Counted from the stretch's first letter, positions 5,009 to 54,410 are shown. The stretch: DNA of 64,000 nt from Gammaproteobacteria bacterium (GCA_965221725.1 OZ244909.1:2629925-2693924); one strand, 5' to 3'. Notes: generated from the letters alone by a model not told the origin. Program-made: numbers and translations.

Positions 5009-5056
5009 CGTGCCGGTTGTCGTCGAGTACGGTCCGACATGCAAGTCCCGCCGCCG

Positions 5057-7936: not shown

Positions 7937-7962
7937 CCGGCATTGTAGACAGAATGCCGGCC

Positions 7963-17314: not shown

Positions 17315-17352
17315 TTGTCGAATCCTCAATATGTCGTGGCGACATGCCGTGG

Positions 17353-21625: not shown

Positions 21626-22073
21626 CATTCTTGTCTCTTCGTTCTCCGATCCCGATTCCACGAAATCCACATGTGCCATCTCTCCGCCGGTGCTGAAGTG
21701 TGCGTCCGACGTAATCGAGTCGGGATGTTCGGGCCTCAACTCCTCCGAGTTCACTCGAAACCGTTGGCCCCTTTACAAGAATGTCAATGTGTAGCGAAGT
21801 GCTCGCGTTTCGCCGTACGAGAGGACAACTTCGACTTGCGCGACACCTCCCGTCGCATCGCCCCGCCAGATCCAGCCGTGCACGCCGCCGCCCGTCACGA
21901 ATCGGAGCATGCAAGTCCCGCGGCGCTGCTTTCAGCAGTCCGATTGTTGCGATGAAATTCGACTTGCCGGATCCGTTTGGACCGATCAGAACGTTCAGCG
22001 GCTCGAGCTTCAACTCTTGCGCGCTTGAACCGAAAGAGAGCACGTCGGTCAGCGGGATGCGGTTGATCAGCAT
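21626..22073 (-). pseudogene. AAA-family ATPase N-terminal remnant (frameshift, nonsense codon, truncation)
   Basis: MLINRI...LNVLIGPNGSGKSNF (Walker A). A +1 frameshift near 21893 (GACGGGCGGCGGCGTG) continues as GGVHGWIWRG, with an in-frame TAA at ~21773. No Walker B. Confidence 0.75.
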
Positions 22074-22089
22074 GGCTCGTCCTCTTCTG

Positions 22090-26964: not shown

Positions 26965-27032
26965 GACGGGAAGGATAGAGGAGAGAAAGATGATGTCAAA
27001 TGTTCGCCGGCCAGTTTGCCGGCGGGTGTTCT

Positions 27033-27055
27033 CCTCTCTCTCCTCGGGAGAGAGG
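27033..27055. repeat. Degenerate third copy of the CTCTCCC/GGGAGAG hairpin upstream of brxA
   Basis: CTCTCTCC-tcg-GGAGAGAG perfect 8-bp stem (27036-27054). Confidence 0.55.
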
Positions 27056-27210
27056 CTTATCCGCATCCAGCGTGAAATGGCCCTGCCAAGCCGTGAGGGG
27101 GACTTCACCCGCATGCATATCCGACGCCGGATCGGCTGCTACTCGCCGGCGGTTCTGCTTGCAACGGTCGGGCCAGATGCGCCCACTCGCGGTGCGCGTC
27201 CCGCCCGAAG

Positions 27211-37332: not shown

Positions 37333-38619
37333 TCAGCGCATCGGCACCGGCCGGCCGTCGGCGCCATCCCATGCGACCCCGAGGAAGTCGAGGATGGTAG
37401 GCGCGATGTCCACCGCGCACGTGGGGGCCTCGATACGGTGCACCTCGCCGGAGCCGTCGTCGACAATCAGCATCGCATTCGTCTCGTAGCGGCCGAGGCC
37501 GCCATGCTGGCCGCGCCCCGGCCCGTCGATGCTCGAGAACCGGCAACCGGCGACGTGGGAGATCCCCGGGACGCCGAACCGGTTCGGGGCGTCCACCCTG
37601 GCCATCGAAAACGCGATGGCGAGACCACCGTCCTCGCGCTGTCCCACCCTGGCCAGGGCGTCGCCCGCGAACACCGGGCCGCACCACGGCTGGTGCTGGA
37701 GCCAGCCCACGATGTCGTCGCGTCGCGAGGCCGCGCGGTCGGCCAGGTAGACGAGTGCGCCCATGCCGCTCGATGCGAACACGACATCGGTCGATTCGGC
37801 GTCCGCCTTGAGTCCCGCCCCGATCATCAGGTTCTCGACGGGAACGACCCGATCCGTCGTCTCGTGCCCATGATCCGAGCAGACCACCAGCAGCACCTCC
37901 TCGCCCCGATCGCGCATGCGGCCGACCGCGGCGACAACGTCCGCCACATTCGCGTCCGCCGCATGCACCAGCGCGCGATGCTCGGGCGAGCCGAGCTCCA
38001 TGACGTGCTGGGAATGGTCGGGTTCGCAGAGCCAGAGCGTGTGCAGAGCATGTCCGCCGGGGGCGTCGAGCGCGGCGCAGAACCGGTGGGTGGTCTCACG
38101 GTCGCCAGCGGCGTCATAGGTGACGTCGAGATGCTCCGGCCCTTCCACCGGCGCGAAGCCCGGACGGTGCGAGCCGCTGCGGTGCAGCAGCAGACCGTGC
38201 CCGTTCGGATCCTGCATGTGGGCGGCGCCGGCCGAGGAGTTGAGCCAGCCCGCCGCTCCGCCGTGATCGCGAAGTCGCTCGCTCAGCGTGGGCCGGCGGA
38301 GCGTGCGTCCCGTCGCGCGGCGCAGCCGTTCGCGAAACGTTGATGGCCCCACCGGGACGGGAACGAGCCCGCTTCCTTCATCGAGGGCGATGACGTTGCC
38401 GTGCAGTCCGTGCGAGGCGGGAAAGCACCCGGTCGCGAGCGACGCGGAGTTCACCCGGGTCGCGGAGGGGAAGACGGAACGGTGATGCGGGTACCAGCGC
38501 GCGGCGGTCGCGAGCCGGTGCAGGTTGGGGGCGCGCGCTTCGTCCACATGGTCGCCGCGCAGACCGTCGACCACGACGTGAACCACACGCCGTTCGACCG
38601 AAGCGCGGGTACCGCCCAT
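37333..38619 (-). CDS. Alkaline phosphatase superfamily protein (type I phosphodiesterase/nucleotide pyrophosphatase)
   Basis: VVVDGLRGD, FPSATRVNSASLATG, EPDHSQH, CSDHGH and GQHGG. Confidence 0.85.
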   Translation of the reverse strand: MGGTRASVERRVVHVVVDGLRGDHVDEARAPNLHRLATAARWYPHHRSVFPSATRVNSASLATGCFPASHGLHGNVIALDEGSGLVPVPVGPSTFRERLRRATGRTLRRPTLSERLRDHGGAAGWLNSSAGAAHMQDPNGHGLLLHRSGSHRPGFAPVEGPEHLDVTYDAAGDRETTHRFCAALDAPGGHALHTLWLCEPDHSQHVMELGSPEHRALVHAADANVADVVAAVGRMRDRGEEVLLVVCSDHGHETTDRVVPVENLMIGAGLKADAESTDVVFASSGMGALVYLADRAASRRDDIVGWLQHQPWCGPVFAGDALARVGQREDGGLAIAFSMARVDAPNRFGVPGISHVAGCRFSSIDGPGRGQHGGLGRYETNAMLIVDDGSGEVHRIEAPTCAVDIAPTILDFLGVAWDGADGRPVPMR

Positions 38620-38627: not shown

Positions 38628-39932
38628 TCAGAAGAAACGCACCAACGCGAGCTGGATGTAGTCGTCCCGACGAAGCGGGGCCATCGGGTCGTCACGCTCG
38701 ACGCCGTTCCAGGCCCGTGCCTCCAGCTCGACCCTCCAGTCGTCGCGCACGCGCCGCGAGGCCTCGAGGGTGAGAGCGGTTGCATCGCCTTCGGCATCGG
38801 CGACGACCGCCGCCACGAGTTCGGTGCCCGCCTCGTCGTTGAGCCCGAGCCGCACGCCGGCGAAGAGGTCGTTCTCGAGAGGGTGCGGCGCGCGTCCCCC
38901 ACGCCCGTCGAACAGGTGCTCCACGAGCAGCCCCAGATCGCTGTCGCTCCCGCGGATGCCGAACCATGTGTATTCGAACCCGGCGACCCACGCGAGGTAG
39001 GCATCTCCCTGCCCCGACTGATGGAGCAGCTCCGCCTTCCACAGCATGGCTTCCTTCGTCGCCTGGAGATCGAGCGAAGTGCGCTGCACGACGTCGTAGT
39101 GGGGCGTCAGGACCACCTCCGCCGGAGACGCTGGCGACGATCCGGCGCCAGGGCACCCCGGCCGCGGCGCCGGTTGTCCATCGGCGCACAAGCTCAGGGG
39201 CAGCAGCCGCGGCTCGCGACTCGTGCCGTGGAAGTGCGCCACGCCGATATCGAAATCCCCGAACGCGTGCGACCAGCGCACCGCGAAGTCGACGCGCTCG
39301 CGGCCCGCCCCCGACTCATGGGTGGCGCGGCTCGTGTCGACGAAGGGCTCGGAACGCAGGCGCCCCTCGCGTCCCGGGTAGGTCCGCTCGCGGAATCCCG
39401 GGAGCACGAAGAGATCGAGCACGCCCCAGTCTCGGGCGAGGGAGAGGTTGACGAGCGGCTGGCCCAGCTTGTCTTCGAGGTCGACGTTCTCCACGAGGTC
39501 CGTCTGGTTGATGACGTCGACGAGATGGTAGGACTCGGTGACGCCCCAGAACACGCGACCGATGCCGGCGCGCAGTTCGAAGTCGTCGAAGACCCGCTGG
39601 TACATCAGCTCCCGCACGTCGAAGTGCGTGCGCCGGTCATCGGCCGAATCGACACGCAGGAACGGCGTGAACACCAGGCTCTGCGCGTCGTCGAAGGCGT
39701 GGTAGAGCTCCGGCTGGACCGCGAACGACAGGCCATGGTGCGTCTGGGGAGGATGTTCGGGTGCGTGCAGGAAGACGCGCGGCTCGATTTCCACCCGGCC
39801 GCTCATCTCGAGGGCGCCGAGCGGAGGTGTGATTGCCAGCAGCGAAACCGCGGCGAGCATGATCCGGGTCGGCGCCAAGCCCGACGCGAAGGTCCTGCGA
39901 GCGCCCCCCGACTCGGCATTCATGGCATGCAT
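38628..39932 (-). CDS. Putative outer-membrane beta-barrel protein (family usually found with MMPL + LolA-like genes)
   Basis: Signal-peptide-like N-terminus, RTHFDVREL, GIGRVFWGVTES, VDVINQTD, alternating amphipathic strands and a C-terminal Phe (LVRFF). Confidence 0.7.
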   Translation of the reverse strand: MHAMNAESGGARRTFASGLAPTRIMLAAVSLLAITPPLGALEMSGRVEIEPRVFLHAPEHPPQTHHGLSFAVQPELYHAFDDAQSLVFTPFLRVDSADDRRTHFDVRELMYQRVFDDFELRAGIGRVFWGVTESYHLVDVINQTDLVENVDLEDKLGQPLVNLSLARDWGVLDLFVLPGFRERTYPGREGRLRSEPFVDTSRATHESGAGRERVDFAVRWSHAFGDFDIGVAHFHGTSREPRLLPLSLCADGQPAPRPGCPGAGSSPASPAEVVLTPHYDVVQRTSLDLQATKEAMLWKAELLHQSGQGDAYLAWVAGFEYTWFGIRGSDSDLGLLVEHLFDGRGGRAPHPLENDLFAGVRLGLNDEAGTELVAAVVADAEGDATALTLEASRRVRDDWRVELEARAWNGVERDDPMAPLRRDDYIQLALVRFF

Positions 39933-40042
39933 TCCCGCCGTGCGCGGTGGCGAGCATGATCCGAGCCTGCGCCAGACCCGATGCGAGGTTCCTGCGAGCA
40001 CCCGCCGGCCTGGTAGTCATTGCATGCATTCCCGCCGCGCGC
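39852..40042. repeat. Imperfect tandem duplication, period 97 bp, covering the translation start and signal-peptide N-region of the OM protein gene
   Basis: GGCGAGCATGATCCG at 39852 and 39949; GCATGCATTCCCGCCG at 39925 and 40022. The copies encode MHAMNAESGGARRTFASGLAPTRIMLA and MHAMTTRPAGARRNLASGLAQARIMLA in different frames. Confidence 0.85.
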
Positions 40043-40158
40043 GTCCCGGATGCGCGCACACGGGAGTTGCGCGGCAGTCCTTGCGCGAGACACGGCCAGC
40101 GGATCGAACCCCGTTCCGCGCCGCGTCATCTCGGGAGCCATCTCGATCCCGGCAAACA

Positions 40159-40944
40159 TCACCGGGCTCGCTTGAGCGCGTTGCGATCGAAGTCCCGGTC
40201 GGTGAGTCCGGTGTTCAGACGGTAGTCTTTCCACTCGATCCGGGTGCTCTTGCCGGTCCGGTCGTTCGCCATGTGCATCACGTCGGGACGCCAGAACCGG
40301 TCGAGATACTGACGGTAGCCTTCGATCGTGAGCGTCTTCAGCAGCGTATTCCTGCGATCGTAATACTCTGTCTTGACGATCCGCCAGATCTCCTGGTCGA
40401 TCCATACCACCTGGCGGGTGTATCCGGAGTGTTCGTACTGGGGGAAGTACTCCACCACCATGGTCTGCCTCCCATCGAGCTCTTCGTCGCGCAGCCACTT
40501 GTAGCGAAACTTGTCCACCTCCTGTGACGCAAGGTCCTCGTAGGCGAATTCGCTGCCCATGAACGACCCCGACTTGTTTCTCGACGAGATCCGCTTGACC
40601 CGCTTCAGCGCCGGCAGGTAGAGCCACTGGTCGTCCGGCTTCGTGGCATGCGTATGGCTCAGGAAGGCGGTGCCCTTCACATCCCGCGGGCTTTCGAACC
40701 GGGACAGGCTCTTGTCCCCGTCGCCCTCGACCTCCAGGGTGCTGATGCGAAGCTCGCGACGGCTTTCCTGTCCCTGCCGGTTGCGCAGGGTCATGACCAG
40801 ACTGGCGCGCTGGTCCTTCCAGCCGCTGTCCCGGCGTTCCATCTCCGTGACGATCGCCAGGCCCTTCTCCTCCGGTGTCTGCGCATGTGCGGCGGGCACC
40901 GGAGCGACGGTAAGCAGCACGATCGGCAGAAGTATCGTCTTCAC
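40159..40944 (-). CDS. Outer-membrane lipoprotein-sorting (LolA-like, DUF1329) periplasmic protein
   Basis: GTG start with GGAGG, signal peptide, FESPRDVKGTAFL, DDQWLYLPALKRVKRIS and SFMGSEFAYEDL. Confidence 0.88.
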   Translation of the reverse strand: MKTILLPIVLLTVAPVPAAHAQTPEEKGLAIVTEMERRDSGWKDQRASLVMTLRNRQGQESRRELRISTLEVEGDGDKSLSRFESPRDVKGTAFLSHTHATKPDDQWLYLPALKRVKRISSRNKSGSFMGSEFAYEDLASQEVDKFRYKWLRDEELDGRQTMVVEYFPQYEHSGYTRQVVWIDQEIWRIVKTEYYDRRNTLLKTLTIEGYRQYLDRFWRPDVMHMANDRTGKSTRIEWKDYRLNTGLTDRDFDRNALKRAR

Positions 40945-41045
40945 TCCAGGCCTCCTTCGACAATCTCGAGTGTGGCAGCCGGCGTGCGCGGGCCGCGGAG
41001 CGCTGAACGCGCCGCAAGCGCGTGGATAGCGGGGAGTGGCGCGAA

Positions 41046-42119
41046 TCATCTTCCGATGCCCGAAGCCGCTGCCTGCCCGACGCGGGGAAGACCACGAGCA
41101 AAAGCCGCGAAGAGGAGCTTCAGGGCCGAGTCCGAGCGCACCAGAGCGCTGGTGACGATAACGACGCCCTTTACGCTGGTGCGCGAGATCTTCACCTCCT
41201 GGCCGTTGCTGAAGTGCGGCGTGGCATGAATCCGGCGCAGCGTCAGAACTGCCATGCCCAGTGCCCACAGGCAGTGGCGGCGAATTCCCGTCTCGTGAGC
41301 AGGAATGAGCAAGGTATACCGCAGCGCGTTCGCAAGGTGCTGGCGCGCAACGGCCACCAGTTCGAAGAGTCCCTTCACGAACCTCGGATCCGCCTGACCC
41401 GGAGACAACGAACTCAAATCGAACCCGAAGGAGGAAAAGACGTCCCGCGGCAACCAGCAGACGCCACGTTCGTGATCGTCCCACATGTCCTTGAGTATGT
41501 TGGTCATCTGCAACCCCTGCCCGAAGGATGTGGCCAACGCAAGCATCTCCTCGCGTCGAGCGCGGATCTCATCGGAATAATCGCAGAACAGTTCCGTGAG
41601 CATTTCACCGACCACGCCGGCGACGTGGTAGCAGTAGCGATCCATCTCGGGAAGATCGCTCAGACCCTCCAGGCTTGCCTCCTGCTGGAATTCCGCCATC
41701 CCGCGTTTCATGGTGCGCACGCAGCGCTCCATGGCGGCGCGCTGTGCCGAAGAGAATCCGTGGGTGATCCTCACCACGCGGTCGATGTTCGCGACGAGAT
41801 CCCGCTCGCTGCGGGTTGTCGCTGGTGACAAGAGTGCGGTCAGCTCTCGCGCGAACGCTTCCACATCGTCTTCGTGACCTTCCACGATGGTGATGAAGCG
41901 CTGGAAGTATTCCTCTTTCAACCCCGGTGACAACGCGGGTTCGTCCTCGATGGTGTCGGCGATTCTGCAAAGCAGGTAGGCATTCGCTACCGCATCGCGT
42001 AACGGGTTTGGCAGTTGCGGGATGGTGAAGGCGAACGTGCGGGAGACACCCTGCAGGATGTCCGTCTGGTAGGCGAGATCCCGCCCATGCGACGCGGTGC
42101 AGGAAGTGGCATTGGCCAT
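41046..42119 (-). CDS. sqs: Squalene synthase (single-enzyme, farnesyl-diphosphate farnesyltransferase type)
   Basis: [39 protein letters not shown] and [12 protein letters not shown] (SQS signature); sterol-gene context. Start taken at MANATS. Confidence 0.85.
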
Positions 42120-42287
42120 GAGCTTTTCGTCGTGAGAGATGCTTTCCGGATTCCGAGGTGCGCGTGCCAGCGGCCTCCGCCGGAGGTTCTCGAATCCGGC
42201 CCCTTCCGGTGCGGGCAGACCGATGGTTTCACGCACGAAAGAATACAGTCAAGGCACAGCACCCGACAACACCGATCCTGGCGAGCG

Positions 42288-42316
42288 TTGACAGGTTCCG
42301 ACCGCATGGATAGGGT
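42288..42316 (+). promoter_or_regulatory. Candidate sigma70 promoter for the MMPL gene
   Basis: TTGACA (42288-42293)-17 bp-TAGGGT (42311-42316), 50 nt upstream of ATG 42366. Confidence 0.5.
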
Positions 42317-42365
42317 TCGCAGACCTCCGCCTTCGCGGAGACACCGATCGGGCGGATTCTGCGCC

Positions 42366-44681
42366 ATGTCATTGAAATCGGATTTTTTCGATCTGGTCGT
42401 AGGCCGGCACTGGTTGACGACATTCGCCACTCTGGTGGTGGTCGCGATCCTTGCGGCGGGGATGCAGTACCTGATCGTTGTCGATGTAGGCATCCGAAAT
42501 CACTTCAGTGGCGATGATCCGCATTTGGTCAAGCTGGAAAACTTCGAAGAAACCTATGCGGTATCCGACAGCGTCCTGGTCGTTGCCGCCCCACCGGACG
42601 ACACGGTTTTCACCCGCGAGACGTTGGGTGCAATCGAGCGATTGACAGAGGCGCTGTGGCAGACGCCCTATGCGACTCGTGTCGATTCGATCACCAACTA
42701 CTCGCATTCGGAAGGAAATGAAGAAGGCCTGGTAGTCGAACCGTTGGTCGACGATGCCGCCTTGCTTGATGATGATCAACTCGACCGGGTGCGAACGATT
42801 GCCCTCACCACACAGGATACGGCCGGGCGCTTCGTCTCTCTCGACGGGCGCCTGGCCGGGCTGATCGTCAGTCTCATACTTCCCGATGACGGCCGGGAGC
42901 AGAAAAAAGCCGAAGTGGTCGACGCTCTCTACGACCTCGTCGACGCGCAGAGCACAGCCAATCCCGAAATCGAATATCACATCTATGGCGAGTTGTTGCT
43001 TGATCAAACCATTCGGGAGGCGCTGAATGAGGACATGTCAGTCCTTGCGCCGATTGCGTTTGCGACGATGATGCTGGTTGCCATTCTGGTGCTGCGTTCG
43101 GTATGGGGCGTTCTGGGAATTCTGGTGATGTTGATCGCCGTGATGATATCCGGTTTCGGATTTGCCGGTTGGTTCGGATTGAAATTCTACGGCGAGAGTG
43201 GCGCGGCACTATTCGTGCTGATGGCGATTGCCGTCGCCCATTCAGTCCATCTGATTCAGGGGGTGATGAACGGAATGCGTAGCGGGATGGAACGCAAGGC
43301 TGCGACGATTCATTCGCTGCAGATCAATGCCCGCCCCATCTTTCTGACTTCCGTGACCACCGCAATCGGTTTTCTGAGTCTGAATTTCTCGGAGATGCCG
43401 CCTTTCCGGGTGATGGGCAACATCGTTGCTTTTGGCGCCATGTGCGCATTCGTCTATGCGGTCACGCTTCTGCCGGCTCTGCTGTCGATGATGCCCATGC
43501 GGGCACCAGCCATGAAAAAGGAGGGAGTCGAGTTCTTAGAGCATCTGGGAAATTTCGTGACTTCCAACGGCACCATCCTGCTCTGGATTTTTGCCATTTT
43601 GTCGGTGGTCAGCGCAATCGGGGTTTCGAGAATCGAGCTGGACGACAACAATCTCCAGTTGCTGGAAGAAAGCTACGAACTGCGTCAGTCTGCTGATTTC
43701 ATCAGCGAAAATTTTTCAGGACTGGATACATTCGAATATTCGCTGAGTTCCGGGCGCGAAGGGGGAATTACCGACGTCTCGTACCTGAATCAGGTCGATG
43801 CATTCGCTGATTGGCTCCGCGACCAACCAGAGGTTTCCCACGTCACTGCGGTGACCGATGTGCTGAAGCGGTTGAATCGGAATCTGAACGGCGATGTGGA
43901 CGGCTCCTATATCCTCCCGGAAAGCTCGGATCTTGCGGCGCAATATCTGCTTCTCTACGAGTTTTCTCTCCCGGTGGGACTCGATCTGAACAATCTCATC
44001 GACTTTGACCGTTCAGCGACTCGCATGACGGTCGTGGTTGAAGCGATGTCGGTTAGAGAACAAATCGAATTCGACGAACGAGCCTCCGCCTGGTTGCGGG
44101 AGAACGCACCACAGATCGGAACCGGAGCAACCGGAGTGACCATCGTCAGTGCCTATTCGGTGATGAGGAATATCGTCAAGATGCTGATTGGCACCGTCAT
44201 TGCGATGTCAATTGTCTCGCTCATTCTCGTTTTTGTTTTCAAGAGCGTGTGGCTCGGACTCCTGAGCTTGATACCGAACTTCCTGCCGGCCATCATGGCG
44301 ATGGGGGTTTGGGGATACACTGTGGGAACCGTCAGTGTCGCAGCGTCGATTGTGACCGCGATCGCATTCGGCATCATCGTGGATGACACCATTCACTTGT
44401 TGTCCAAGTACCTGAGATCACGTGGTGAGGGCAAGTCACCCACGGAGGCAATCGTGCCGACCTTCAAGCTCGTCGGGAGGCCGTTGTTGACCACCACCTT
44501 GATTTTCGCGCTGGGGTTTCTGGTATTCGGCGCGTCGGGGCTTGCGACCAATCAGACCCTTGGGGTGCTGGTGGGGCTCACGGTCGTCATCGCGCTGATG
44601 GCGGACTTCCTCCTCTTTCCCCCCCTGCTGGTAGCCCTTGACAAGACCAAAGCATTGGTGACTCGCACAGCGACGCATTAG
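42366..44681 (+). CDS. MMPL-family RND transporter (candidate sterol exporter)
   Basis: Two repeats of TM + periplasmic domain + 5 TM; motifs TTAIGFLSL and GIIVDDTIH. Divergent from sqs, convergent with the DHCR24-like gene. Confidence 0.9.
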   Translation: MSLKSDFFDLVVGRHWLTTFATLVVVAILAAGMQYLIVVDVGIRNHFSGDDPHLVKLENFEETYAVSDSVLVVAAPPDDTVFTRETLGAIERLTEALWQTPYATRVDSITNYSHSEGNEEGLVVEPLVDDAALLDDDQLDRVRTIALTTQDTAGRFVSLDGRLAGLIVSLILPDDGREQKKAEVVDALYDLVDAQSTANPEIEYHIYGELLLDQTIREALNEDMSVLAPIAFATMMLVAILVLRSVWGVLGILVMLIAVMISGFGFAGWFGLKFYGESGAALFVLMAIAVAHSVHLIQGVMNGMRSGMERKAATIHSLQINARPIFLTSVTTAIGFLSLNFSEMPPFRVMGNIVAFGAMCAFVYAVTLLPALLSMMPMRAPAMKKEGVEFLEHLGNFVTSNGTILLWIFAILSVVSAIGVSRIELDDNNLQLLEESYELRQSADFISENFSGLDTFEYSLSSGREGGITDVSYLNQVDAFADWLRDQPEVSHVTAVTDVLKRLNRNLNGDVDGSYILPESSDLAAQYLLLYEFSLPVGLDLNNLIDFDRSATRMTVVVEAMSVREQIEFDERASAWLRENAPQIGTGATGVTIVSAYSVMRNIVKMLIGTVIAMSIVSLILVFVFKSVWLGLLSLIPNFLPAIMAMGVWGYTVGTVSVAASIVTAIAFGIIVDDTIHLLSKYLRSRGEGKSPTEAIVPTFKLVGRPLLTTTLIFALGFLVFGASGLATNQTLGVLVGLTVVIALMADFLLFPPLLVALDKTKALVTRTATH

Positions 44682-46345
44682 TCGTCGGCTTTCTCTCTGA
44701 TTTCAGCGATCAACCAACTTTCCGGCATGACCTTGTCGTAAACCTCGGGGAAAGCATTTTCCGCCTCGTACTTGCGCCGCATGGCGCGGTAGTTGCCGTG
44801 TTCGAAGGTCTGTTCGAATTCATCGCGCGTCATGCAGAGATCGGCATAGAGCATCAAGTAGCCGCCACATTCACGTACGAACTGCTCAAGACGTCGAGTT
44901 GCCGGCACTTGATGGTAGTGACCAGTGGCGGCGCTTGGCGGAATACCGTAGATGCCGAGATCGACGAACATTTGATGGGGTGCACCCTTGGCTGGGTTGC
45001 GAAGAAAACCCTCATTGGCTCCGTGATCGAACAGCCTGACCGGACAGACCCATAGCGGATGAATGTCGAAGAGTTCGTCGCTGATGTGGATCGAGTCGGC
45101 GAGGCATTCGATAGGTATCAAGATATCGTGCGCGACACGATTTGCAAAAGCCTTTCGTCGCACATCCGGCGTCTGCGTCAGCTTCATGAGCGAGATCTTG
45201 GGTGCGCCCATCCATGCCCACAGATAGCGGTACCACACAGAATTGGCGAAGCCGATGAGATCCTTGATCTGAAAAAAAACGGAGGGTGTATGACGGTGGA
45301 AGTAATGGCGAGCTGGAATGTAGTCGGTGAACTTTCCAATTTCTAGACTTTGCGCAGCATGGCTGTAAAACCAGGGTTTATGAAACCTGTTGATGTGATT
45401 GACGCGTACTCCGGGGGGAGGGGAGGCGAATTCACCCTTCAGGATGACGCCCGAGTTTTCGGAAAATATCAATCCCTCGATAAAGCGGGGAGCGTTGGGA
45501 TCGGCGGTAAGTTCTTCCAGTCGGGCACAAAAACCTTCCAGAGAGTGAAATGGCTCGTAATTGAGCTTGACGTGCGGTTGAATTGGCACAATGCGTAACT
45601 CGACCGCTACGAGGAACCCCAACGTACCATGCGACCAGGGTAGCGCGTGGAACAGATCGGCGTTTTCTTCACGCGTGGCTCGAATCAGTTCGCCATTGGC
45701 AACGACGACCTCGAATGCCTCGACCGTTTCGTGCAGAAAACCTTCGCGATGGCTTGTGGTTTCGATGCCGACACCCATGCAGAGTCCGCCCAGTGTCAGG
45801 TCGTCCATCTCCGCCAGAACGGTGAGCGCGTATCCTCTGGGGACGAGAAAATGCGTGATATCCCCCATTGTCACCATCGGTTCGGCGCGCACGATGCCCC
45901 GTACTTCATCCACTTCCAGAACATTGCGGAGATCGATGTGCACCTGATGCATGCTTTCCTTAAAGTCCGGGTTGCGCGGTGTCATCGACTTCCAGGGCTT
46001 GCGTGCCGTGCACATGCGCTTTCCACTGGCATAACCGTCCCGGACTTGCGACTGAATCGCGCGTACGGCGGCGGCATGCCTGGCGTCGGTGTTCCGGAAA
46101 GTGCGATAGAACCACTTGCCAAGATCTTCAATCTTTTGGTAGACGAAGCTGGCCGGCACCGCGAAGCCCGCAATGACGAACTCACGGTGGTGGAACATGA
46201 AATCGGTGAAGGACTTCGGGACCTTCATCACATCAATGTACTCCCTGTCGAAATCTGCTGTTTTCCCCGACTCTGAGTCAGCCCGGAAAACCGCTAATCC
46301 CGAATACAGGGAGGTCTTGTCGCACGGGGAAGTTAATTTTTTCAA
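44678..46345 (-). CDS. Delta24-sterol reductase-like FAD oxidoreductase (DHCR24/DWF1 family)
   Basis: RMCTARKPW, VRAEPMVTMG, LTLGGLCMGVGIETTSH, FHALPWSHGTLGFL, YFHRHTPSVF, PLWVCP and AFPEVYDKV. Start is TTG 46345 (TTGA overlap) or ATG 46228. Confidence 0.88.
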   Translation of the reverse strand: MKKLTSPCDKTSLYSGLAVFRADSESGKTADFDREYIDVMKVPKSFTDFMFHHREFVIAGFAVPASFVYQKIEDLGKWFYRTFRNTDARHAAAVRAIQSQVRDGYASGKRMCTARKPWKSMTPRNPDFKESMHQVHIDLRNVLEVDEVRGIVRAEPMVTMGDITHFLVPRGYALTVLAEMDDLTLGGLCMGVGIETTSHREGFLHETVEAFEVVVANGELIRATREENADLFHALPWSHGTLGFLVAVELRIVPIQPHVKLNYEPFHSLEGFCARLEELTADPNAPRFIEGLIFSENSGVILKGEFASPPPGVRVNHINRFHKPWFYSHAAQSLEIGKFTDYIPARHYFHRHTPSVFFQIKDLIGFANSVWYRYLWAWMGAPKISLMKLTQTPDVRRKAFANRVAHDILIPIECLADSIHISDELFDIHPLWVCPVRLFDHGANEGFLRNPAKGAPHQMFVDLGIYGIPPSAATGHYHQVPATRRLEQFVRECGGYLMLYADLCMTRDEFEQTFEHGNYRAMRRKYEAENAFPEVYDKVMPESWLIAEIREKADD

Positions 46346-48360
46346 GCAGGCAGTTCGTGCAACCGATTCGCAATATGGACTTTCAGCTTTTCGGACACCG
46401 ACAAGGTAGGAAAAGGACTGATTTTCAGTTTGTAGTTGCCGGGGATCGGAGAAAAATCAAAATAATAAGCAATCATCAGCATGGTAACGATCATCTGCAT
46501 GTTCATCCAATCGTACCCCACGCACATGTGGGTACCCAGCCCATACGGGGCGTATCCGTAACTCCGGTGCTCCTTGCGTGGCAACAGATAACGATCGATA
46601 TCGAATTTGAAAGGATCCGGAAAACTGTCACTCATGTAATGTGCTGCGGTTTGCATGATGTGTACCCGTTCCCCTAGCGGCAGTGCGTAGTCTTCCACCA
46701 CGCAGGAATTCGCCACATTTCGAACCTGCATGCTGACAACGGGATACATTCGCAGGCACTCCATGAGAAAACGAAGTGTCACGTCATAGTTTTCCGGGAT
46801 GAACTTCTCCCTGTCGGGATTGCCGTTATCGAAAATTGCGGTTGCCTCCTCCCGAATTCTCGCCGCAAGCTCCGGGTGTCTGGCCATCTCGAAAAGTGCA
46901 AATCCGAGGAGATCACCGACGTAGATACTTTGAAGTATTGGTGCGGCTGCCAGCATGAAGGGGAGGTTCTGCTCCGGCAGAAATTGCGGGTCACTGCTGT
47001 GCAGGCTGATGAGATCGTCCGCCAATTCTCGGACTGCTCCCGCCCGCTGGAAGGGCGTATGGCTTTGCTCTATTCGTCGCACGAAGGTACCGAGAAGTCC
47101 GAAACGTTTCTTCATGGCTGGAGTGCGGGCCATGAATTTCGGCATGATATGTCCGACATAACAGTTGGATGCCGTTTCCTTCCATTTCACCAATTCCTCG
47201 AAGATGTCCTGCGTGTCCGTGCTGACGGTAATCATGGTCATTTGCATATTGATCATCAGCCGAGTATCGCGCTTTACATCGATCTCCGAGTTATTTTGCC
47301 ACTTTCGGTTCGACATGAACTGTCGGGTCAGCCGACATATGTCGTCCAGTCTTTCGTTGAATTTGTCCGTTGAGTAGACGCCTCTCATCACTTTGCGAAG
47401 TCGGAAGTGATCAGCACCATCCAGGGACGTGATCAAACCTTGTGCGCCACAGGCCTGCTCCAGCTCACGAAAATAATTCCCGGAAGTCAGGTACATTCGA
47501 GCATTTCTATGTATCCATCGATTCGCCTTTTCTCCCGCCACAAAAGTCATTGGTTTCTGAAATGGTAGTCCTATCTGGAAAACCGGGCCGTATTGCTCGG
47601 TTATACTTGCAAATAACGCGGGAATGTTGCCATTCCAGAGATGCCGGTTCGACAGAAATTTCTTGATGGAAACTCTGGGAATTTTCTTTCTCAGAGGTGT
47701 GCTTTGTAAAGTAGGCGCGATAATTGTCTGTTCGACGCCGGAAGCAATTGTTCGATTAATCAACTCTACTTTGCAAATCCACTCGATTCGATCTTCCGTT
47801 TCCTTGTCCAGATCAAAAATAAAGCGAACGACATCACATGCATTCAAAAGACCGATAATAAGTGAATCTCGCGGATTGGGTATGATATCCGCGAAGAGCA
47901 CTTCTCCAATTCTTTCCTTGATGTACAGACCTGCGGGATCCTGGATGGCGTATTCCCTTAGTTCCGCATGCCAATCGGAGTAGTTCATTGTGTAGAACCC
48001 TCCATCATGGTGCTGCAGAATTCCCATTCGGACCAAGCGCTGCAATGAGGTATCAATGATGGTTTCCGAATGAACCGCAAGCCGCTCTATCCAGTAACGC
48101 GCTTCCTGCGAACCGGAATGAGACGCAATCTCTTCCAGGCACAGATCCAGAACCGAATCGCCTGTTTTGGTCGAATCGATCAGGAAAAGAGATTTTTCAT
48201 CCGTATCAATGCGTGATTTCAGGGAGAGGTCCGCCAGAACTGCCCCGATGAAGGCACAGTTCAGGGTCCAGCCTTCTACTTGATAGAAATATCCGGTCTG
48301 ATCGTTGAGAAGCATCACAACGAGTTCCTCCGGAACATTCAGCGCATACTTCGAGGTCAT
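46342..48360 (-). CDS. GPP34 (GOLPH3-like) domain - cytochrome P450 fusion protein
   Basis: The N-terminal ~205 aa (EELVVMLLNDQTG...GAVLADLSLKSRIDTD...TKTGDSVLD...WIERL...LQRLVRMGIL) fit the GPP34 pattern. The C-terminal P450 has ExxR (ECLR), DPFKFDIDR and heme motif YGLGTHMCVG. Confidence 0.8.
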   Translation of the reverse strand: MTSKYALNVPEELVVMLLNDQTGYFYQVEGWTLNCAFIGAVLADLSLKSRIDTDEKSLFLIDSTKTGDSVLDLCLEEIASHSGSQEARYWIERLAVHSETIIDTSLQRLVRMGILQHHDGGFYTMNYSDWHAELREYAIQDPAGLYIKERIGEVLFADIIPNPRDSLIIGLLNACDVVRFIFDLDKETEDRIEWICKVELINRTIASGVEQTIIAPTLQSTPLRKKIPRVSIKKFLSNRHLWNGNIPALFASITEQYGPVFQIGLPFQKPMTFVAGEKANRWIHRNARMYLTSGNYFRELEQACGAQGLITSLDGADHFRLRKVMRGVYSTDKFNERLDDICRLTRQFMSNRKWQNNSEIDVKRDTRLMINMQMTMITVSTDTQDIFEELVKWKETASNCYVGHIMPKFMARTPAMKKRFGLLGTFVRRIEQSHTPFQRAGAVRELADDLISLHSSDPQFLPEQNLPFMLAAAPILQSIYVGDLLGFALFEMARHPELAARIREEATAIFDNGNPDREKFIPENYDVTLRFLMECLRMYPVVSMQVRNVANSCVVEDYALPLGERVHIMQTAAHYMSDSFPDPFKFDIDRYLLPRKEHRSYGYAPYGLGTHMCVGYDWMNMQMIVTMLMIAYYFDFSPIPGNYKLKISPFPTLSVSEKLKVHIANRLHELPA

Positions 48361-48420
48361 GTCAACGGCATCCTTGGCTCGACCTGAAGCACTCCGGTTG
48401 CGGCAGCATCGGATGGCGAG

Positions 48421-51400
48421 TCAGACGGAAGCCAGCTCGATCCGGGGTGGTATCGTGTCTGTGGTGCTACCGGTGTTAGCGAGATTCTCCATTCGGCTCC
48501 GGCGGCGTTGCTCGTAGAGACCAAGAGCGTGCAGAGGAAAGTACTGCCGATAGAGGACATAGTCCAGAAGTGCGGTTCGGAAGAACACCCCTGCCATGTC
48601 CTGCTTGGGCCATGTTCCGTCGGGGCGTTGCATGTCGAGCAGGAAGTGGGCGCCGTGCGAAATCGCGGTCCAGTTGGATTCTCCCGCCTCGATGAGCGCG
48701 ATCAGCGCCCATGCGGTCTGGATCACCTGGCTTTCCTCGTGCTGAACGTATCGGCCGGTCAGGCATCCGCTGTGGTGCTCGCCCCATCCGCCGTCTTCCC
48801 GCTGGCGCCCCAGCAGCCAGTGACAGGCCGAACGAAGCGCCGGATCGCCGGGCTGGACCCCGGCGGCGAGGAGACCTCTGATCCCGAAGAGGGTGCCGTA
48901 AATGAACTGAATTCCCCATACGCCGCGCCACGATCCGTCTCTCTTCTGGGTTCGACGAAGCCAGACGGCAGCCCGAGAGACGGCTCTGGAGATAATATCC
49001 GTCATTATATCATCCGCTATCTCCGGCACATGCTCTCGACAAGCCGAGAGTGCCGCCAAGCAGGACCCCGTACATTCGACGAAGGAGTGCTCGGTCATCG
49101 ATTCGCCGAACATTTCGGCCGGGTTCAGCCACTCCAGACCGACGAGCGAGCGTCGTGCCTCGTAGCTGCCAAAGCCGCCATCGCGGTTTTGGCGGCGCAA
49201 CATGAACCTGACCGCTTCGCTCAGCGCGGCCGGATTCGATCTACCGCGTCCGGCGGCGACGATTCCGAGCACCGCCTCTGCGGTACAGTCGCTCACCGGC
49301 CACCCATGCCATCCGCCGGGGAAACACCAGCCGCCTTTGGGATCGGACCGATAGGCATCGCGGAATCCGTCGAAGCTGGTGCCGATCTGCTCTCTGAGCA
49401 GGAATTCGGCGCCGCGCTCAAGGGCATCCCGAGCCCCGTCGAACGTGGGAACCTCAGCCAGCGCCTGCAGCGCGAACCCGCTGTCCCATGAGGCACTTCT
49501 CGCTCCGGTGACACGCGCCCCCTGCTCCTCATCCTCCCAGATCCAGCCGTCCATTCGCGCCAGTGCCTGGTCGAGGTCGGCATCGTCCGGATCGCGCAGC
49601 CACAGGGCAAGCATGTTGAGAAGACCGCTGACTGGAGAGATGCTCGTATGATCGGTGGTCCGCAGCTCCCATTTGATCTGTCGGAGGATCTCTTCGGTGC
49701 ATCGGGCGCGCAAGCGCTCGCCGTGGAAGCGGTCTAACAGCCGCGCGAATCCGTACCCCGCCTTGAGCCACACACTCGGCCGCGCGAACAGATCCGCCTC
49801 CCGCAGGCACCCGCGGGCAGCGGAGAAATCCGCGCTGGCGAATCCTCGGGGGAACAGCTCTTCGCGTAGCGACGCGATCAAGGGGGTGACGGGCGCCTGG
49901 AACCGGTGCGCATAGATCACCGCCATCGCCATGTAGATGAGCCGCGTATGGCAGTACCAGTTCGAGGGGTGCAAGGGGACCCAGCGCGGCAGGCCCCACA
50001 GTTCCGGCAGGATGGCGTTGACTCCACGCCAGTCGTAGAGGTTGAGGAGCGCGAGCCAGAATTTCCCCCAGCTCGGAATCCCGATAATTCCTTCGGCCTG
50101 TATGAATCGAAGGGCCGGCCCGACCAGAGGGTCGTCTCGTTCGACGCCAAGCGACCGTGCCGCGACGTACACCAGCGCGGTGACGAAGAGCTGGGGCGGC
50201 GAGTGCTCGTGCATGCCCCACGCTCCCCCTTCGAGCCGACTCTGTTCGAAGAAGCGAAGCACATGCCGACGCCGGGTGGGTTCGAGCGGACGGCCGATGA
50301 TATGGTGCAGCAGCACATATTGCGCGGTCAGCATGGGACACCAGACCATCTCGCCCTCCCAGCCTCCGTCCTTGCTCTGAAGACTCAGAAGGCGATCGGC
50401 CGCGCTGCGCAATGCCGGACCGGCATCGGGCGATTCAACCTCCTTCGGCCGGTCGGACCTGGAGGCAACTCTCTCCGAGGCCATGGAGTGCAGAAACGCG
50501 CGGGCAAGATTGTACCGTACGCTCTCTTCCCTTTCCTTGCGCCCGGCTCTCACCTTGCGCAATTGCAGGGCCCCGCACATGAACCACCAGATACGGACGG
50601 TGAGCGCACGGAAGACGGTACTGAACCGATGCAAGGTGAGGCGGGGGGGACGGGACAGTGAAACTTCCCTGGCCAGTGCCCGGATCGCGGTTCCGGAAAA
50701 AGCGAGACTCATGCCGGCCACGGATCGGTCTTCGCATGCGAGGATCCGCGTGGTTCGATCGCGGTACCGAGCACTTGTCCGCCACCCCATATAGACGGCG
50801 TGTCGTAGTGCGTGCGCCTCGGCTCGATAATCGGCGAAGACTTCGTAGAGCCCCATGGCGAGCAACTCCGGCATGTGGGTATCCCGGAGCCGCCGGTTGG
50901 TGAAGTCGCGAAAGCTCTCGCTCTCGGCGAGGGCAAGCGCATCGCCGAAACCCAGGGTCATGCCGACCGCAGTCATGGGATGGTAGTGCCCGGCCGCGTC
51001 ACCGATCAGTACTCGATGCGAGTTCCCGTAGGCAGCGCGCGGCCGGAGTTGATTGGCCGCAAAGTGGAACTGCCTTGCCCGAATTGCTTCGACGAACTTC
51101 GATCTGAGCGCCTCCGGCATGAGATCGGCATAGGATTCCGTCAGAAAACCGACCCGGTCCCGTTTTGCCCAGCAATCCAACGGAACATCGATGATGATTC
51201 GGACGCAGCCATCCGCCACACTGTACGCGAGCACCGGGCCTGGTCCGCCGAGCAGTACATGGCCCTGGCCCTCGAAGGGCAAGTTCCCCCCCGTCAACGT
51301 GACCCCGACCATTCGCGAACAGTGAATGGGGTCTGTCGACAGCCCGAGCGATCGACGCACGGTCGAAGCCCGGCCGTCGGCGCCGACGATTCGCGCCGCG

Positions 51401-51873
51401 TTCAGGGTGTGCAAGGCGCCGTTGCAGCTATAGGTCAGCCGCTGGTCTTCAACCGCGGTGACCCGTGCCCTGGTGACAAAATCTATCGCCGCCTCGTCTT
51501 CGATGGCTTCCCGCAACTTCGAGACGAGCAACGTATGCTCGCATACCAGACCCTGGGAGCCTTTGGGGTAGGGAAGTGCGATCGGTTCCGATCCGTCTTC
51601 CGGGAACACCACGAATCCATTGCCGGCGGCGCTGCGGGGCAAGGTGTCGAGATCGATCCCGAGGTTACGCAGTATCCGCACGGCCGGCGGATGCAGCCAT
51701 TCGCCCGCCATGCGCTCGGCCGCCTTGGGGTTCGCCTCCAGCAGAGCGACGCGAGCGCCTCTTTGCGCGTGGGCCAGTGCACACACGTTCCCCACCGGCC
51801 CCGCGCCGACGATGACCACGTCGTAACACCGCGAAGCGGCGCCGTTCTCGGGAAGATGTCCGGCCGTGTTCAA
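48421..51873 (-). CDS. osc: Squalene epoxidase - oxidosqualene cyclase fusion (~1150 aa)
   Basis: FAD domain: VIVGAGPVG, GEWLHP and GDAAGHYHPMTAVGM. Cyclase: QW repeats (QSKDGGW, QNRDGGF, QKRDGSW, QREDGGWGE, QRPDGTW) and the OSC catalytic DCTAE (49276-49290). True start taken as TTG 51873 overlapping the cyp51 TGA. Confidence 0.92.
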   Translation of the reverse strand: MNTAGHLPENGAASRCYDVVIVGAGPVGNVCALAHAQRGARVALLEANPKAAERMAGEWLHPPAVRILRNLGIDLDTLPRSAAGNGFVVFPEDGSEPIALPYPKGSQGLVCEHTLLVSKLREAIEDEAAIDFVTRARVTAVEDQRLTYSCNGALHTLNAARIVGADGRASTVRRSLGLSTDPIHCSRMVGVTLTGGNLPFEGQGHVLLGGPGPVLAYSVADGCVRIIIDVPLDCWAKRDRVGFLTESYADLMPEALRSKFVEAIRARQFHFAANQLRPRAAYGNSHRVLIGDAAGHYHPMTAVGMTLGFGDALALAESESFRDFTNRRLRDTHMPELLAMGLYEVFADYRAEAHALRHAVYMGWRTSARYRDRTTRILACEDRSVAGMSLAFSGTAIRALAREVSLSRPPRLTLHRFSTVFRALTVRIWWFMCGALQLRKVRAGRKEREESVRYNLARAFLHSMASERVASRSDRPKEVESPDAGPALRSAADRLLSLQSKDGGWEGEMVWCPMLTAQYVLLHHIIGRPLEPTRRRHVLRFFEQSRLEGGAWGMHEHSPPQLFVTALVYVAARSLGVERDDPLVGPALRFIQAEGIIGIPSWGKFWLALLNLYDWRGVNAILPELWGLPRWVPLHPSNWYCHTRLIYMAMAVIYAHRFQAPVTPLIASLREELFPRGFASADFSAARGCLREADLFARPSVWLKAGYGFARLLDRFHGERLRARCTEEILRQIKWELRTTDHTSISPVSGLLNMLALWLRDPDDADLDQALARMDGWIWEDEEQGARVTGARSASWDSGFALQALAEVPTFDGARDALERGAEFLLREQIGTSFDGFRDAYRSDPKGGWCFPGGWHGWPVSDCTAEAVLGIVAAGRGRSNPAALSEAVRFMLRRQNRDGGFGSYEARRSLVGLEWLNPAEMFGESMTEHSFVECTGSCLAALSACREHVPEIADDIMTDIISRAVSRAAVWLRRTQKRDGSWRGVWGIQFIYGTLFGIRGLLAAGVQPGDPALRSACHWLLGRQREDGGWGEHHSGCLTGRYVQHEESQVIQTAWALIALIEAGESNWTAISHGAHFLLDMQRPDGTWPKQDMAGVFFRTALLDYVLYRQYFPLHALGLYEQRRRSRMENLANTGSTTDTIPPRIELASV

Positions 51874-53279: not shown

Positions 53280-53287
53280 CTCTGTTC

Positions 53288-54400: not shown

Positions 54401-54410
54401 CGGTGTTTCC

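Follow-up and report, generated by a model that had tools for sequence, protein, structure and literature searches.

We analyzed a 64,000-nucleotide stretch of a gammaproteobacterial genome (GCA_965221725.1, OZ244909.1:2629925-2693924; here, the window), probably from a sponge-associated bacterium, in which a squalene synthase (SQS) gene is flanked by a divergent MMPL/RND transporter gene and, on its own strand, by genes for a LolA-like carrier and an outer-membrane (OM) barrel (Table 1). [quoted passage not shown] All four genes were recovered by open reading frame (ORF) and Pfam or fold checks, and the divergent arrangement was borne out, with 246 bp separating MMPL and SQS. The synthase matched PF00494 (E = 1.5e-59) and was TIGR01559-like in NCBIfam. 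RNA runs gave no coverage of the locus genes.

Table 1. Features of the sterol locus and its surroundings (positions counted from the first nucleotide of the window)
Feature	Position	Strand	Remarks
Type I phosphodiesterase (alkaline-phosphatase superfamily) gene	37333-38619	-	PF01663
OM beta-barrel gene	38628-39923	-	431 aa; backbone; no named family
LolA-like carrier gene	40159-40941	-	260 aa; PF17131/TP_0789-like; backbone
Squalene synthase (SQS) gene	41046-42119	-	PF00494; last gene of sterol block
Divergent intergenic region	42120-42365	.	Common to SQS and first cassette gene
Clade-B MMPL/RND transporter gene	42366-44681	+	771 aa; PF03176
VAO-family FAD oxidoreductase gene	44678-46345	-	PF01565; cassette member
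GPP34-cytochrome P450 fusion gene	46342-48360	-	672 aa; PF05719 + PF00067; first cassette gene after SE-OSC
Accessory cassette, ~6 kb (MMPL-B, FAD, GPP34-P450)	42360-48364	.	Variable slot between SE-OSC and SQS
Core sterol cluster: SdmB, SdmA, ERG24, CYP51, squalene epoxidase-oxidosqualene cyclase fusion (SE-OSC)	48421-56683	-	Pfam

The transporter ORF extends over 42015-44681 (+), with ATG 42366 as its likely start. The protein matched PF03176 in two stretches (E = 1.4e-32; 113.4 bits, gathering threshold 20.5) and gave weak Patched/SSD matches in Pfam. The top NCBIfam model was HAE3 (TIGR00921), at 171.8 bits under its curated cut-off of 351.9; HpnN models were also among the best matches, yet far under their cut-offs (112.4 against 751.85 and 32.2 against 1100 for TIGR03480/NF052374). 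Kyte-Doolittle analysis, a crude method, placed hydrophobic segments at residues 10-30, 222-426, and 599-747 and loops at ~31-221 and ~427-598 (~190 and ~170 aa), which fits the RND topology of TM1, a periplasmic loop, TM2-6, a second loop, and TM7-12. Homologues were 59 to 79% identical, and dN/dS values of 0.07 to 0.14 were obtained. A neighbor-joining tree resolved two clean MMPL clades, clade A being the cognate transporter of a MMPL, LolA-like, barrel operon (see below) and clade B (MMPL-B) that of the window; the median identity of the window protein to the MMPLs of the 80 loci retrieved with the LolA query, nearly all of them operon MMPLs, was 39.6%.

The LolA-like gene starts with GTG, preceded by a strong GAAGGAGG ribosome-binding site, and its product carries a cleavable type I signal peptide. 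It matched PF17131 (LolA_like) over profile positions 2-184 of 184 (E = 1.2e-64; 217.9 bits, gathering threshold 30) and is 62% identical to the solved Vibrio structure 3bk5; the LolA-like label originally given to it stands, while DUF1329 turned out to be a secondary, partial Pfam match. In the tree it falls in the main, MMPL-A-associated LolA clade, and its dN/dS is 0.16 to 0.31. Canonical LolA carries lipoproteins in concert with LolCDE and LolB; no LolCDE gene was found among the window ORFs scanned. The barrel protein has a signal peptide and a C-terminus ending in ...VRFF, and no sequence match in Pfam, NCBIfam, or the PDB; none of its 3,708 homologues has a Pfam domain. Its AlphaFold model, of only moderate confidence (pLDDT 64.8), is all-beta with ~20 strands, the top Foldseek matches being porins and AlgE (TM ~0.45 to 0.5). 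Assignment to DUF1302 was rejected (hhalign probability of 0.3% against the DUF1302 protein of locus L092, and no Pfam match). The barrel gene (dN/dS of 0.19 to 0.31) is followed after 8 bp by the phosphodiesterase gene, with which it is probably co-transcribed and which is kept, by synteny, only in family-level relatives (L002, L004 to L007, and L009).

Homologues of the carrier and barrel genes form part of a widespread operon. A co-directional MMPL gene ends ≤600 bp upstream of the LolA-like gene in 61 of 70 genome loci, and the LolA-like gene is directly followed by a homologous barrel gene in 57 of 64, an order with which the window agrees; in L039 and L075 the operon ORFs overlap by 44 nt. 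The operon MMPLs (clade A) are ~40% identical to that of the window, and the hosts include Gammaproteobacteria, Nitrospinota, and Desulfobacterales, among others. Pairs of MMPL and LolA-like genes also occur beside pathways for other lipids; one such pair follows a type I PKS on a Sulfitobacter plasmid. Upstream of the window LolA-like gene the co-directional clade-A MMPL is absent; SQS is found there, and the only MMPL is the divergent one of clade B. The window carrier and barrel represent the conserved tail of the clade-A operon and are not sterol-specific. This runs against the sterol-dedicated role first assigned to them: sterol genes are present in only 1 of 80 LolA-like loci, and in the sterol-less loci L007, L009, and L010 carrier and barrel are conserved alongside an MMPL that belongs to another clade. 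For these two genes, this is the pattern that the original prediction had itself named as refuting it.

Synteny indicates how this tail came to lie beside a sterol cluster. The backbone order in sterol-less relatives is HAGH, MMPL-A, LolA, and barrel (seen in L006, L007, and L009), and in the window, L002, and L005 the sterol block stands in place of MMPL-A, between HAGH and LolA. SQS, directly upstream of the LolA-like gene, thus holds the MMPL-A position of other genomes, and shares 95, 92, and 86% identity with its counterparts at this position in L002, L005, and L004, respectively. Inserts at the MMPL-A/LolA junction were also found in L004 (GPP34-P450, 3bHSD, steroid reductase, Rieske, and SQS) and L006 (MMPL-B, a second LolA-like gene, LolA2, and GPP34-P450). 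The closest relatives, L002 and L005, keep the series sterol cluster, SQS, LolA, and barrel, yet their 20-kb loci lack an MMPL, so that carrier and barrel have a function independent of MMPL-B. Both genes are still under purifying selection after the loss of the adjacent MMPL-A (dN/dS of 0.16 to 0.28 against L002 and L005).

The accessory cassette is missing in both of these relatives, the slot being occupied by a sterol methyltransferase (SMT) in L002 and empty in L005. The core sterol cluster shows ~90% nucleotide identity to both, and blastn places the homology break with L002 at 42359/42360; in the alignment, a 5' sequence common to both genomes runs right up to the start codon, that of the MMPL in the window and that of the SMT in L002. 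An IS element lies at the edge of the sterol block. Cassette acquisition is recent, as the original prediction had supposed for the assembly, since the relatives without it are 97.6% and 90% identical in backbone DNA. The original claim on composition holds only in part: carrier and barrel share the high GC3 of the backbone (0.84 to 0.86; LolA 0.84), as first claimed, but the MMPL (0.685) does not resemble the core sterol genes (0.72 to 0.82). Together with the FAD gene (0.644) and GPP34-P450 (0.569) it forms a third, lower-GC stratum, the cassette having a GC content of 0.48 to 0.59 against 0.62 to 0.71 in its flanks.

The GPP34-P450 gene, two genes away from the clade-B MMPL and overlooked at first, is the consistent partner of that transporter. 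It encodes both domains in one polypeptide (PF05719 at residues 10-193 and PF00067 at 485-655), and the nearest solved relatives of its P450 are, weakly, CYP51s. Sponge symbionts are the only reported source of this two-domain fusion (GPP34_L), for which an effect on host phagocytosis has been proposed (PMC11706023); that paper mentions neither MMPL nor sterol, whereas here the fusion lies consistently beside clade-B MMPLs and often beside sterol genes. The nearest solved structures to the FAD oxidoreductase are FAD-linked oxidases and cytokinin dehydrogenases; no homologue was found in six clade-B loci tested (L001, L089 to L091, L093, and L094), and among the loci sampled it occurs only in the window genome.

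Across 14 clade-B loci, which are phylogenetically non-independent and derive in several cases from the same sponge-type metagenomes, sterol- or squalene-pathway genes lie ≤10 kb from the MMPL in 10, in at least six different arrangements; GPP34-P450 does so in 11, and one or the other in all 14. These contexts include SE-OSC clusters (L089, L090, and L094), SMT, Rieske-KshA_C, or ERG24-like genes (L085 to L087 and L092), and an alphaproteobacterial Aestuariivita contig (L091) with SQS, barrel, and LolA, where SQS adjoins the latter two in a different gene order. Two clade-B MMPLs have a LolA-like partner of their own, in the orders SE-OSC, divergent from GPP34-P450, MMPL-B, LolA-like (L094) and MMPL-B, LolA-like (L006); LolA2 forms a separate clade in the tree. 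Because clade-B loci are tied to sterol genes or GPP34-P450, the window MMPL is, by genomic association, a good candidate exporter of sterols or steroid lipids. Its originally proposed link to sterols is upheld by these counts, and the route from MMPL to a LolA-like carrier is a real architecture; what fell was the sterol specificity of the carrier and barrel next to it. Within 10 kb of the transporter, five clade-B loci (L001, L089, L090, L093, and L095) lack both LolA and barrel, so neither is needed nearby. Three of them, L001, L093, and L095, combine MMPL-B and GPP34-P450 but carry no sterol gene in that span, so that a lipid of another kind could be the substrate.

Among known systems, BstABC of Methylococcus capsulatus likewise has an MMPL-family RND gene in a neighborhood of sterol genes that includes sdmA/sdmB and osc, and its proposed route crosses the periplasm from the inner to the outer membrane (PMC10942540); in the window, SdmA, SdmB, and SE-OSC are all found no more than 12 kb from the MMPL. 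The candidate partners differ, being a LolA-fold protein and a beta-barrel instead of BstB (PF12974) and BstC (TPAT T-component), neither of which had a match in the window ORFs scanned, as originally noted. The periplasmic domains of BstA (residues 54-277 and 510-732; PMC10942540) are, comparing domain boundaries only, longer than the loops of the window MMPL, which, at 771 aa, is the smaller protein. HpnN, an RND lipid exporter like BstA (PMC10942540), is also an MMPL/HAE3-like RND protein whose periplasmic loops are short and whose gene is part of a triterpenoid biosynthesis cluster; it needs no co-encoded partners (PMC6394551). The HpnN structure in the PDB was not among the phmmer matches of the window MMPL at E ≤ 1e-3. 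AmeABCD of Castellaniella defragrans, whose genes accompany those of isoprenoid metabolism, effluxes monoterpenes by means of an HAE3-type RND protein, a periplasmic protein of the LolA superfamily, and an OM protein (PMC6394551). Unlike the window, Ame uses DUF1302 (OM), a 450-aa DUF1329 protein, and a BNR protein; the window carrier shares only 23% identity with a DUF1329 protein, and there is no AmeC-type BNR/Ycf48-like ORF near the window genes. The carrier and barrel are orthologous members of the operon type of Thalassolituus oleivorans TOL_3187/3188, that example being matched by description; the operon is uncharacterized apart from its proteomic induction on a long-chain alkane (PMC6304351). 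Its cognate clade-A MMPL is missing here, and the adjacent MMPL is divergent and of the other clade.

The locus is a mosaic, and transporter, carrier, and barrel are not one inherited system. Sterol export from it is plausible; carrier and barrel are leftovers of a different, widespread lipid-export operon. The reading we favor, at a probability of about 0.55, has three layers, with the clade-B MMPL as the putative sterol-linked component and the resident carrier and barrel perhaps co-opted. The backbone operon would, from its architecture, pass a hydrophobic cargo from a proton-driven RND pump to a LolA-fold periplasmic carrier and on to an OM barrel, and its distal part survives here as LolA-like, barrel, and phosphodiesterase genes. 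The sterol cluster (SdmB to SE-OSC and SQS) stands exactly at the place of MMPL-A, between HAGH and LolA, and the slot between SE-OSC and SQS has recently received GPP34-P450, the FAD oxidoreductase, and MMPL-B. [quoted passage not shown] Where MMPL-B has a LolA-like carrier of its own (L094 and L006), that carrier is likely to take the lipid onward, and in the window the resident carrier and barrel may have been recruited for this step. Gene identities, clade membership, synteny, cassette limits, association statistics, and purifying selection are directly shown by the analysis; substrate, direction of transport, and any cooperation among the three proteins are inferred.

The carrier and barrel could instead be coincidental neighbors that work on an unrelated cargo together with an MMPL-A from another part of the genome, the junction being an insertion hot spot and MMPL-B acting alone in the manner of HpnN. 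The rarity of sterol genes at LolA loci (1/80), the persistence of carrier and barrel without MMPL-B in L002 and L005, the five MMPL-B loci lacking both, the IS element at the border, and the self-sufficiency of HpnN (PMC6394551) are all in keeping with this. Three different lipid or sterol cargos at the same junction (L004, L006, and the window lineage), SQS beside LolA and barrel in another order in L091, and the LolA-like genes that accompany MMPL-B in L094 and L006 speak against it, and we consider such coincidence possible but somewhat unlikely.

It is still less probable that GPP34-P450 modifies a non-sterol, perhaps host-derived or phosphoinositide-related, lipid whose product MMPL-B exports, with sterol genes adjacent because mobile islands are shared in sponge symbionts. 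Reports of the fusion from such symbionts alone and its proposed role in host phagocytosis (PMC11706023) fit this idea, as do the three loci with MMPL-B and GPP34-P450 but no sterol genes (L001, L093, and L095), in which IS elements are often close by. Against it stand the sterol-pathway genes in 10/14 loci, the loci L085 to L087, where MMPL-B is accompanied by SMT, Rieske, and ERG24-like genes and the fusion is missing, the insertion of the cassette in the slot held by SMT in L002, and the kinship, weak as it is, of the P450 with CYP51 sterol demethylases. Characterized RND/MMPL pumps (HpnN, MmpL3/4/5, and AmeD) move substrates outward, and the window genes belong to a biosynthetic, not catabolic, cluster; both points make it very improbable that MMPL, carrier, and barrel serve the uptake of host sterols, hydrocarbons, or other hydrophobic substrates, in spite of the strong induction on C28 alkane of an MMPL-LolA-like fusion and an adjacent porin-like protein in T. 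oleivorans (PMC6304351).

Beyond the three-layer mosaic, a mobile module of MMPL-B and GPP34-P450 using LolA-fold carriers and a barrel might constitute a second, undescribed bacterial sterol-trafficking system in sponge-associated bacteria, a tentative proposal that we rate as rather unlikely. If true, the module would bring bacterial sterols, which may be oxidized or alkylated on the side chain, to the surface of the cell or to the host, and GPP34-P450 would have to be seen as an enzyme acting on sterols or lipids, not as a secreted phagosome effector.

Open reading frame (ORF) listing together with Pfam and NCBIfam scans of the window gave the gene order on both strands shown in the table, and therefore confirmed the four genes and their orientations from which the original prediction had drawn a sterol export route: an MMPL transporter divergent from squalene synthase (SQS), which is followed on its own strand by a LolA-like carrier and an outer-membrane barrel. 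GC content is 0.62 to 0.71 apart from a few islands, one of which, at 42 to 48 kb, falls to 0.48 to 0.59. By GC3, three strata were distinguished, the backbone (0.84 to 0.89, with the LolA-like gene at 0.84 and the barrel at 0.86), the core sterol genes (0.72 to 0.82, with SQS at 0.76), and a low-GC cassette (0.57 to 0.69) that includes the MMPL gene. The squalene epoxidase and oxidosqualene cyclase form one polypeptide of ca. 1,150 amino acids (SE-OSC) in the sponge-type loci (the window, L002, L089, L090, and L094), and on the side of the HAGH gene the sterol cluster is bordered by a DDE transposase of the IS type. The only exact metatranscriptome contig in the region covers this transposase (X23, 56743-56957). 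In three metatranscriptome runs bearing the same organism label, the coverage of the MMPL, LolA-like, and barrel genes was zero, and the matches were limited to part of a transposase and a short stretch resembling CYP51.

Features of the window and of the compared loci (L numbers), with positions counted within each locus
Locus	Feature	Position	Strand	Basis
Window	Type IIG restriction-modification enzyme	1616-5365	-	
Window	Type 1 BREX system	9337-27114	-	
Window	SIR2-HerA defense pair	14224-17329		
Window	Type I phosphodiesterase	37333-38619	-	
Window	431-aa protein, no family (putative barrel)	38628-39923	-	
Window	LolA-barrel spacer with direct repeat	39935-40055		
Window	LolA_like/PF17131 protein	40159-40941	-	
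Window	Squalene synthase	41046-42119	-	
Window	MMPL transporter	42366-44681	+	
Window	VAO-type FAD oxidoreductase	44678-46345	-	
Window	GPP34-P450 fusion	46342-48360	-	
Window	Squalene epoxidase-oxidosqualene cyclase fusion (ORF)	48421-52308	-	Pfam/NCBIfam scan
Window	CYP51	51870-53342	-	Pfam/NCBIfam scan
Window	ERG24	53288-54400	-	Pfam/NCBIfam scan
Window	SdmA	54411-55532	-	Pfam/NCBIfam scan
Window	SdmB	55529-56683	-	Pfam/NCBIfam scan
Window	IS-type DDE transposase	56763-57887	-	
Window	SE-OSC/SQS slot	48365-42359		Comparison of close relatives
L002	SE-OSC/SQS slot	7525-8563		Comparison of close relatives
L005	SE-OSC/SQS slot	8343-8643		Comparison of close relatives
L004	Rieske-KshA_C oxygenase	7299-8366		
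L085	Rieske-KshA_C oxygenase	5082-6125		
L086	Rieske-KshA_C oxygenase	12408-13451		
L087	Rieske-KshA_C oxygenase	2987-4027		
L092	Rieske-KshA_C oxygenase	18041-19123		

A scan of the genome collection with the window's LolA-like protein as query returned 80 loci, from Gammaproteobacteria (Thiotrichales, Chromatiales, Arenicellales, and others) as well as from Nitrospinota, Nitrospirota, Desulfobacterales, Gemmatimonadota, Deferribacteres, and one alphaproteobacterium. Where enough upstream sequence was available, a co-directional MMPL ended at most 600 bp from the LolA-like gene in 61 of 70 loci, with an ORF overlap of 44 nt in some; where enough downstream sequence was available, a barrel homologue came next in 57 of 64. 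Of the 80 loci, L005 alone, which is closely related to the window, carried sterol genes. Thus, MMPL, LolA-like gene, and barrel make up a widespread and conserved operon with no tie to sterols. The operon MMPLs, with a median identity of 39.6% to that of the window, formed a separate clade in a neighbor-joining (NJ) tree (MMPL-A, as opposed to MMPL-B for the clade of the window's gene). MMPL and LolA-like pairs were also found on plasmids of cultured Pseudoalteromonas and Sulfitobacter; on that of Sulfitobacter sp. DSM 110093 (L097, 1-6783), the two genes come immediately after a type I polyketide synthase, and the pair has therefore been recruited to other lipid pathways too. Taken as a whole, the operon resembles a generic path for lipid export across the envelope. 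Since it is conserved with a clade A MMPL where sterol genes are missing, the LolA-like carrier and the barrel could not be kept as members of a sterol triad.

To reconstruct how the window's arrangement arose, we compared its DNA with that of its relatives and their gene tables. The relatives have a common backbone (HAGH, MMPL-A, LolA-like, barrel, phosphodiesterase, DUF1722, DegP, and ABC genes), the order of which is intact in the sterol-less L006, L007, and L009. In the window, L002, and L005 (a Thiotrichales MAG), the entire sterol block lies between HAGH and the LolA-like gene, and MMPL-A is missing there. The backbone DNA of L002 and L005 is 97.6% and 90% identical to that of the window, respectively. 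Other cargo is found at the MMPL-A/LolA junction of L004 (GPP34-P450, 3-beta-HSD, a steroid reductase, a Rieske oxygenase with a KshA_C domain, and SQS) and L006 (a clade B MMPL, a second LolA-like gene, and GPP34-P450). When the window (30168-55873) was compared with L002, dS was 0.02 to 0.05 in the backbone versus 0.29 in the sterol genes, so that the history of the sterol cluster differs from that of its flank. The intermediate values of SQS (0.125) and the LolA-like gene (0.076) point to recombination near their border.

Within the sterol block, homology with L002 ends at 48364/48365 and 42359/42360, and the 6-kb interval in between contains exactly the GPP34-P450, FAD, and MMPL genes. Among these close relatives, the slot between SE-OSC and SQS is occupied by a sterol methyltransferase (SMT) in L002, by nothing in L005, and by the cassette in the window. 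One common 5' sequence upstream of the SQS gene abuts the start codon of the MMPL in the window and that of the SMT in L002, so that the MMPL sits where L002 has a bona fide gene of sterol tailoring. The window's MMPL thus belongs to a cassette of its own, acquired very recently. Neither direct nor inverted repeats were found flanking the borders. The FAD oxidoreductase could be assigned to the VAO family level, and a sterol delta-24-reductase-like role is a guess. The third gene fuses a GPP34 (GOLPH3-like) domain to a cytochrome P450 whose nearest solved relatives are the CYP51 sterol demethylases (E value of about 1e-15).

The window's MMPL has hundreds of homologues at 63 to 79% identity, some of them labeled Rhodobacteraceae, Aestuariivita, Chromatiales, or Gammaproteobacteria. 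We took one by one the contexts of 14 clade B loci, including the window (a metagenome scan with the MMPL gave four loci). GPP34-P450 was inside the locus in 11 of them, and sterol or squalene-pathway genes in 10, namely SE-OSC clusters (the window, L089, L090, and L094), SQS (L004 and L091), and SMT, Rieske-KshA_C, and/or ERG4/24-like genes (L085, L086, L087, and L092). None of the 14 lacked both, and at least six gene orders were represented. The adjacency of GPP34-P450 to an RND lipid pump in the window and 10 other loci suggests that its role is in lipid metabolism. The window's MMPL-B, with dN/dS of about 0.07 to 0.14 and saturated dS, is under strong purifying selection, and its topology is that expected of an RND protein, with short loops. 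Its weak Pfam matches to Patched and sterol-sensing domains were rejected as evidence, because clade A MMPLs give the same ones. Beside clade B MMPL and SMT genes, a Rieske-KshA_C oxygenase recurs in conserved form (61 to 66% identity between groups); it may oxygenate or desaturate the ring or the side chain of sterols.

Some clade B pumps are accompanied by carriers of the LolA type. L094 has the order SE-OSC, divergent from GPP34-P450, MMPL-B, and LolA-like gene, and its LolA-like protein grouped in an NJ tree with the extra copy of L006 as a distinct clade (LolA2). In L091, an Aestuariivita-labeled contig, MMPL-B and GPP34-P450 lie ca. 6 kb from a LolA-like, barrel, and SQS series. No LolA-like or barrel gene was found within 10 kb of the clade B MMPL in L001, L089, L090, L093, and L095.

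The window's own LolA-like gene begins with GTG, preceded by GAAGGAGG, and encodes a cleavable signal peptide of the non-lipoprotein type and a protein that shares 62% identity with 3bk5, a solved structure from Vibrio. The putative barrel has a signal peptide, a C-terminal end in ...VRFF, and a medium-confidence AlphaFold model (mean pLDDT of 64.8) that is all-beta, with ca. 20 strands, and best matches general porins and AlgE (TM of about 0.45 to 0.5), all of which makes the predicted outer-membrane barrel a reasonable assignment, within a family that has no name. Against PDB sequences it had no match even at an E value of ≤1. The spacer upstream contains a short direct repeat, ggcgggaatgcatgc[a/c]atga, in two copies ca. 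95 bp apart, immediately before the start of the barrel gene. Versus L002 and L005, the dN/dS of both genes was 0.16 to 0.28, similar to that of neighboring genes; they are still under purifying selection in a lineage without an adjacent MMPL-A. An alkaline-phosphatase-superfamily phosphodiesterase starts 8 bp after the barrel gene, a synteny that extends to family-level relatives only, and may be an addition to the operon that acts on lipid head groups in the periplasm.

To our knowledge, BstABC of methanotrophs is the only bacterial sterol transport system described, and we know of no account of sterol movement in other producers. In line with the original prediction, no BstB-like (PF12974) or BstC-like match appeared among the window ORFs scanned, a difference from that system; the window's MMPL is not HpnN either and scores below the cutoff of the HAE3 model. 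The nearest experimentally studied architecture to the window's pump, carrier, and barrel is AmeABCD, an HAE3 RND with a LolA-superfamily protein and an outer-membrane protein for monoterpene efflux (PMC6394551). An Ame-type DUF1329 protein is only 23% identical to the window's carrier, and DUF1302, the family of the Ame-type outer-membrane protein, was rejected for the window's barrel, no relation being found. In Thalassolituus, growth on C28 alkane appears to induce the operon type of the window's LolA-like and barrel genes (PMC6304351).

The export route stands in part: the MMPL clade is linked to sterols only by gene neighborhood, with substrate and direction inferred, but the three genes were not inherited together as a sterol system. 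Instead, a sterol-linked pump cassette has recently come to lie beside what is left of a generic operon for lipid export. On the best-supported reading, the clade B MMPL would be an RND exporter of lipids associated with sterol clusters, in analogy with HpnN (hopanoids) and BstA (4-methylsterols; PMC10942540). Transfer from MMPL-B to a carrier of the LolA fold is supported by L094 and L006; in the window, the resident LolA-like carrier and barrel may serve this step.

GPP34-P450 fusions have been reported from sponge symbionts only, as proposed phagosome effectors (PMC11706023), and sterol clusters are common in symbionts of the sponge Ircinia (PMC9531527). As runs labeled "sponge metagenome" also share sequence words with the window, its source is likely a sponge-associated gammaproteobacterium. 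The window also carries a type IIG restriction-modification enzyme and a complete type 1 BREX system (BrxA, BrxB, BrxC, PglX, PglZ, and BrxL), with a SIR2-HerA defense pair (GC of 0.53 to 0.58) inserted between PglX and PglZ.

In the literature searched, we found no link of GPP34-P450 to MMPL or sterols, nor of LolA-like proteins with RND pumps to bacterial sterols; the sterol link of this MMPL clade, its partnership with GPP34-P450, and its occasional LolA-like carriers appear to be new, and are testable. The MMPL, LolA-like, and barrel operon is very widespread, essentially unstudied, and a recurrent landing site for lipid-pathway genes. The candidate supplied for sterol export is an MMPL clade set apart from the others, which goes together with genes of the sterol pathway and with the sponge-symbiont-specific GPP34-P450, sometimes with a LolA-like partner of its own. 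For sponge sterols as biomarkers, the sterol methyltransferases of the symbionts are a complication, and whether such sterols are exported therefore matters for both symbiosis and geochemistry.
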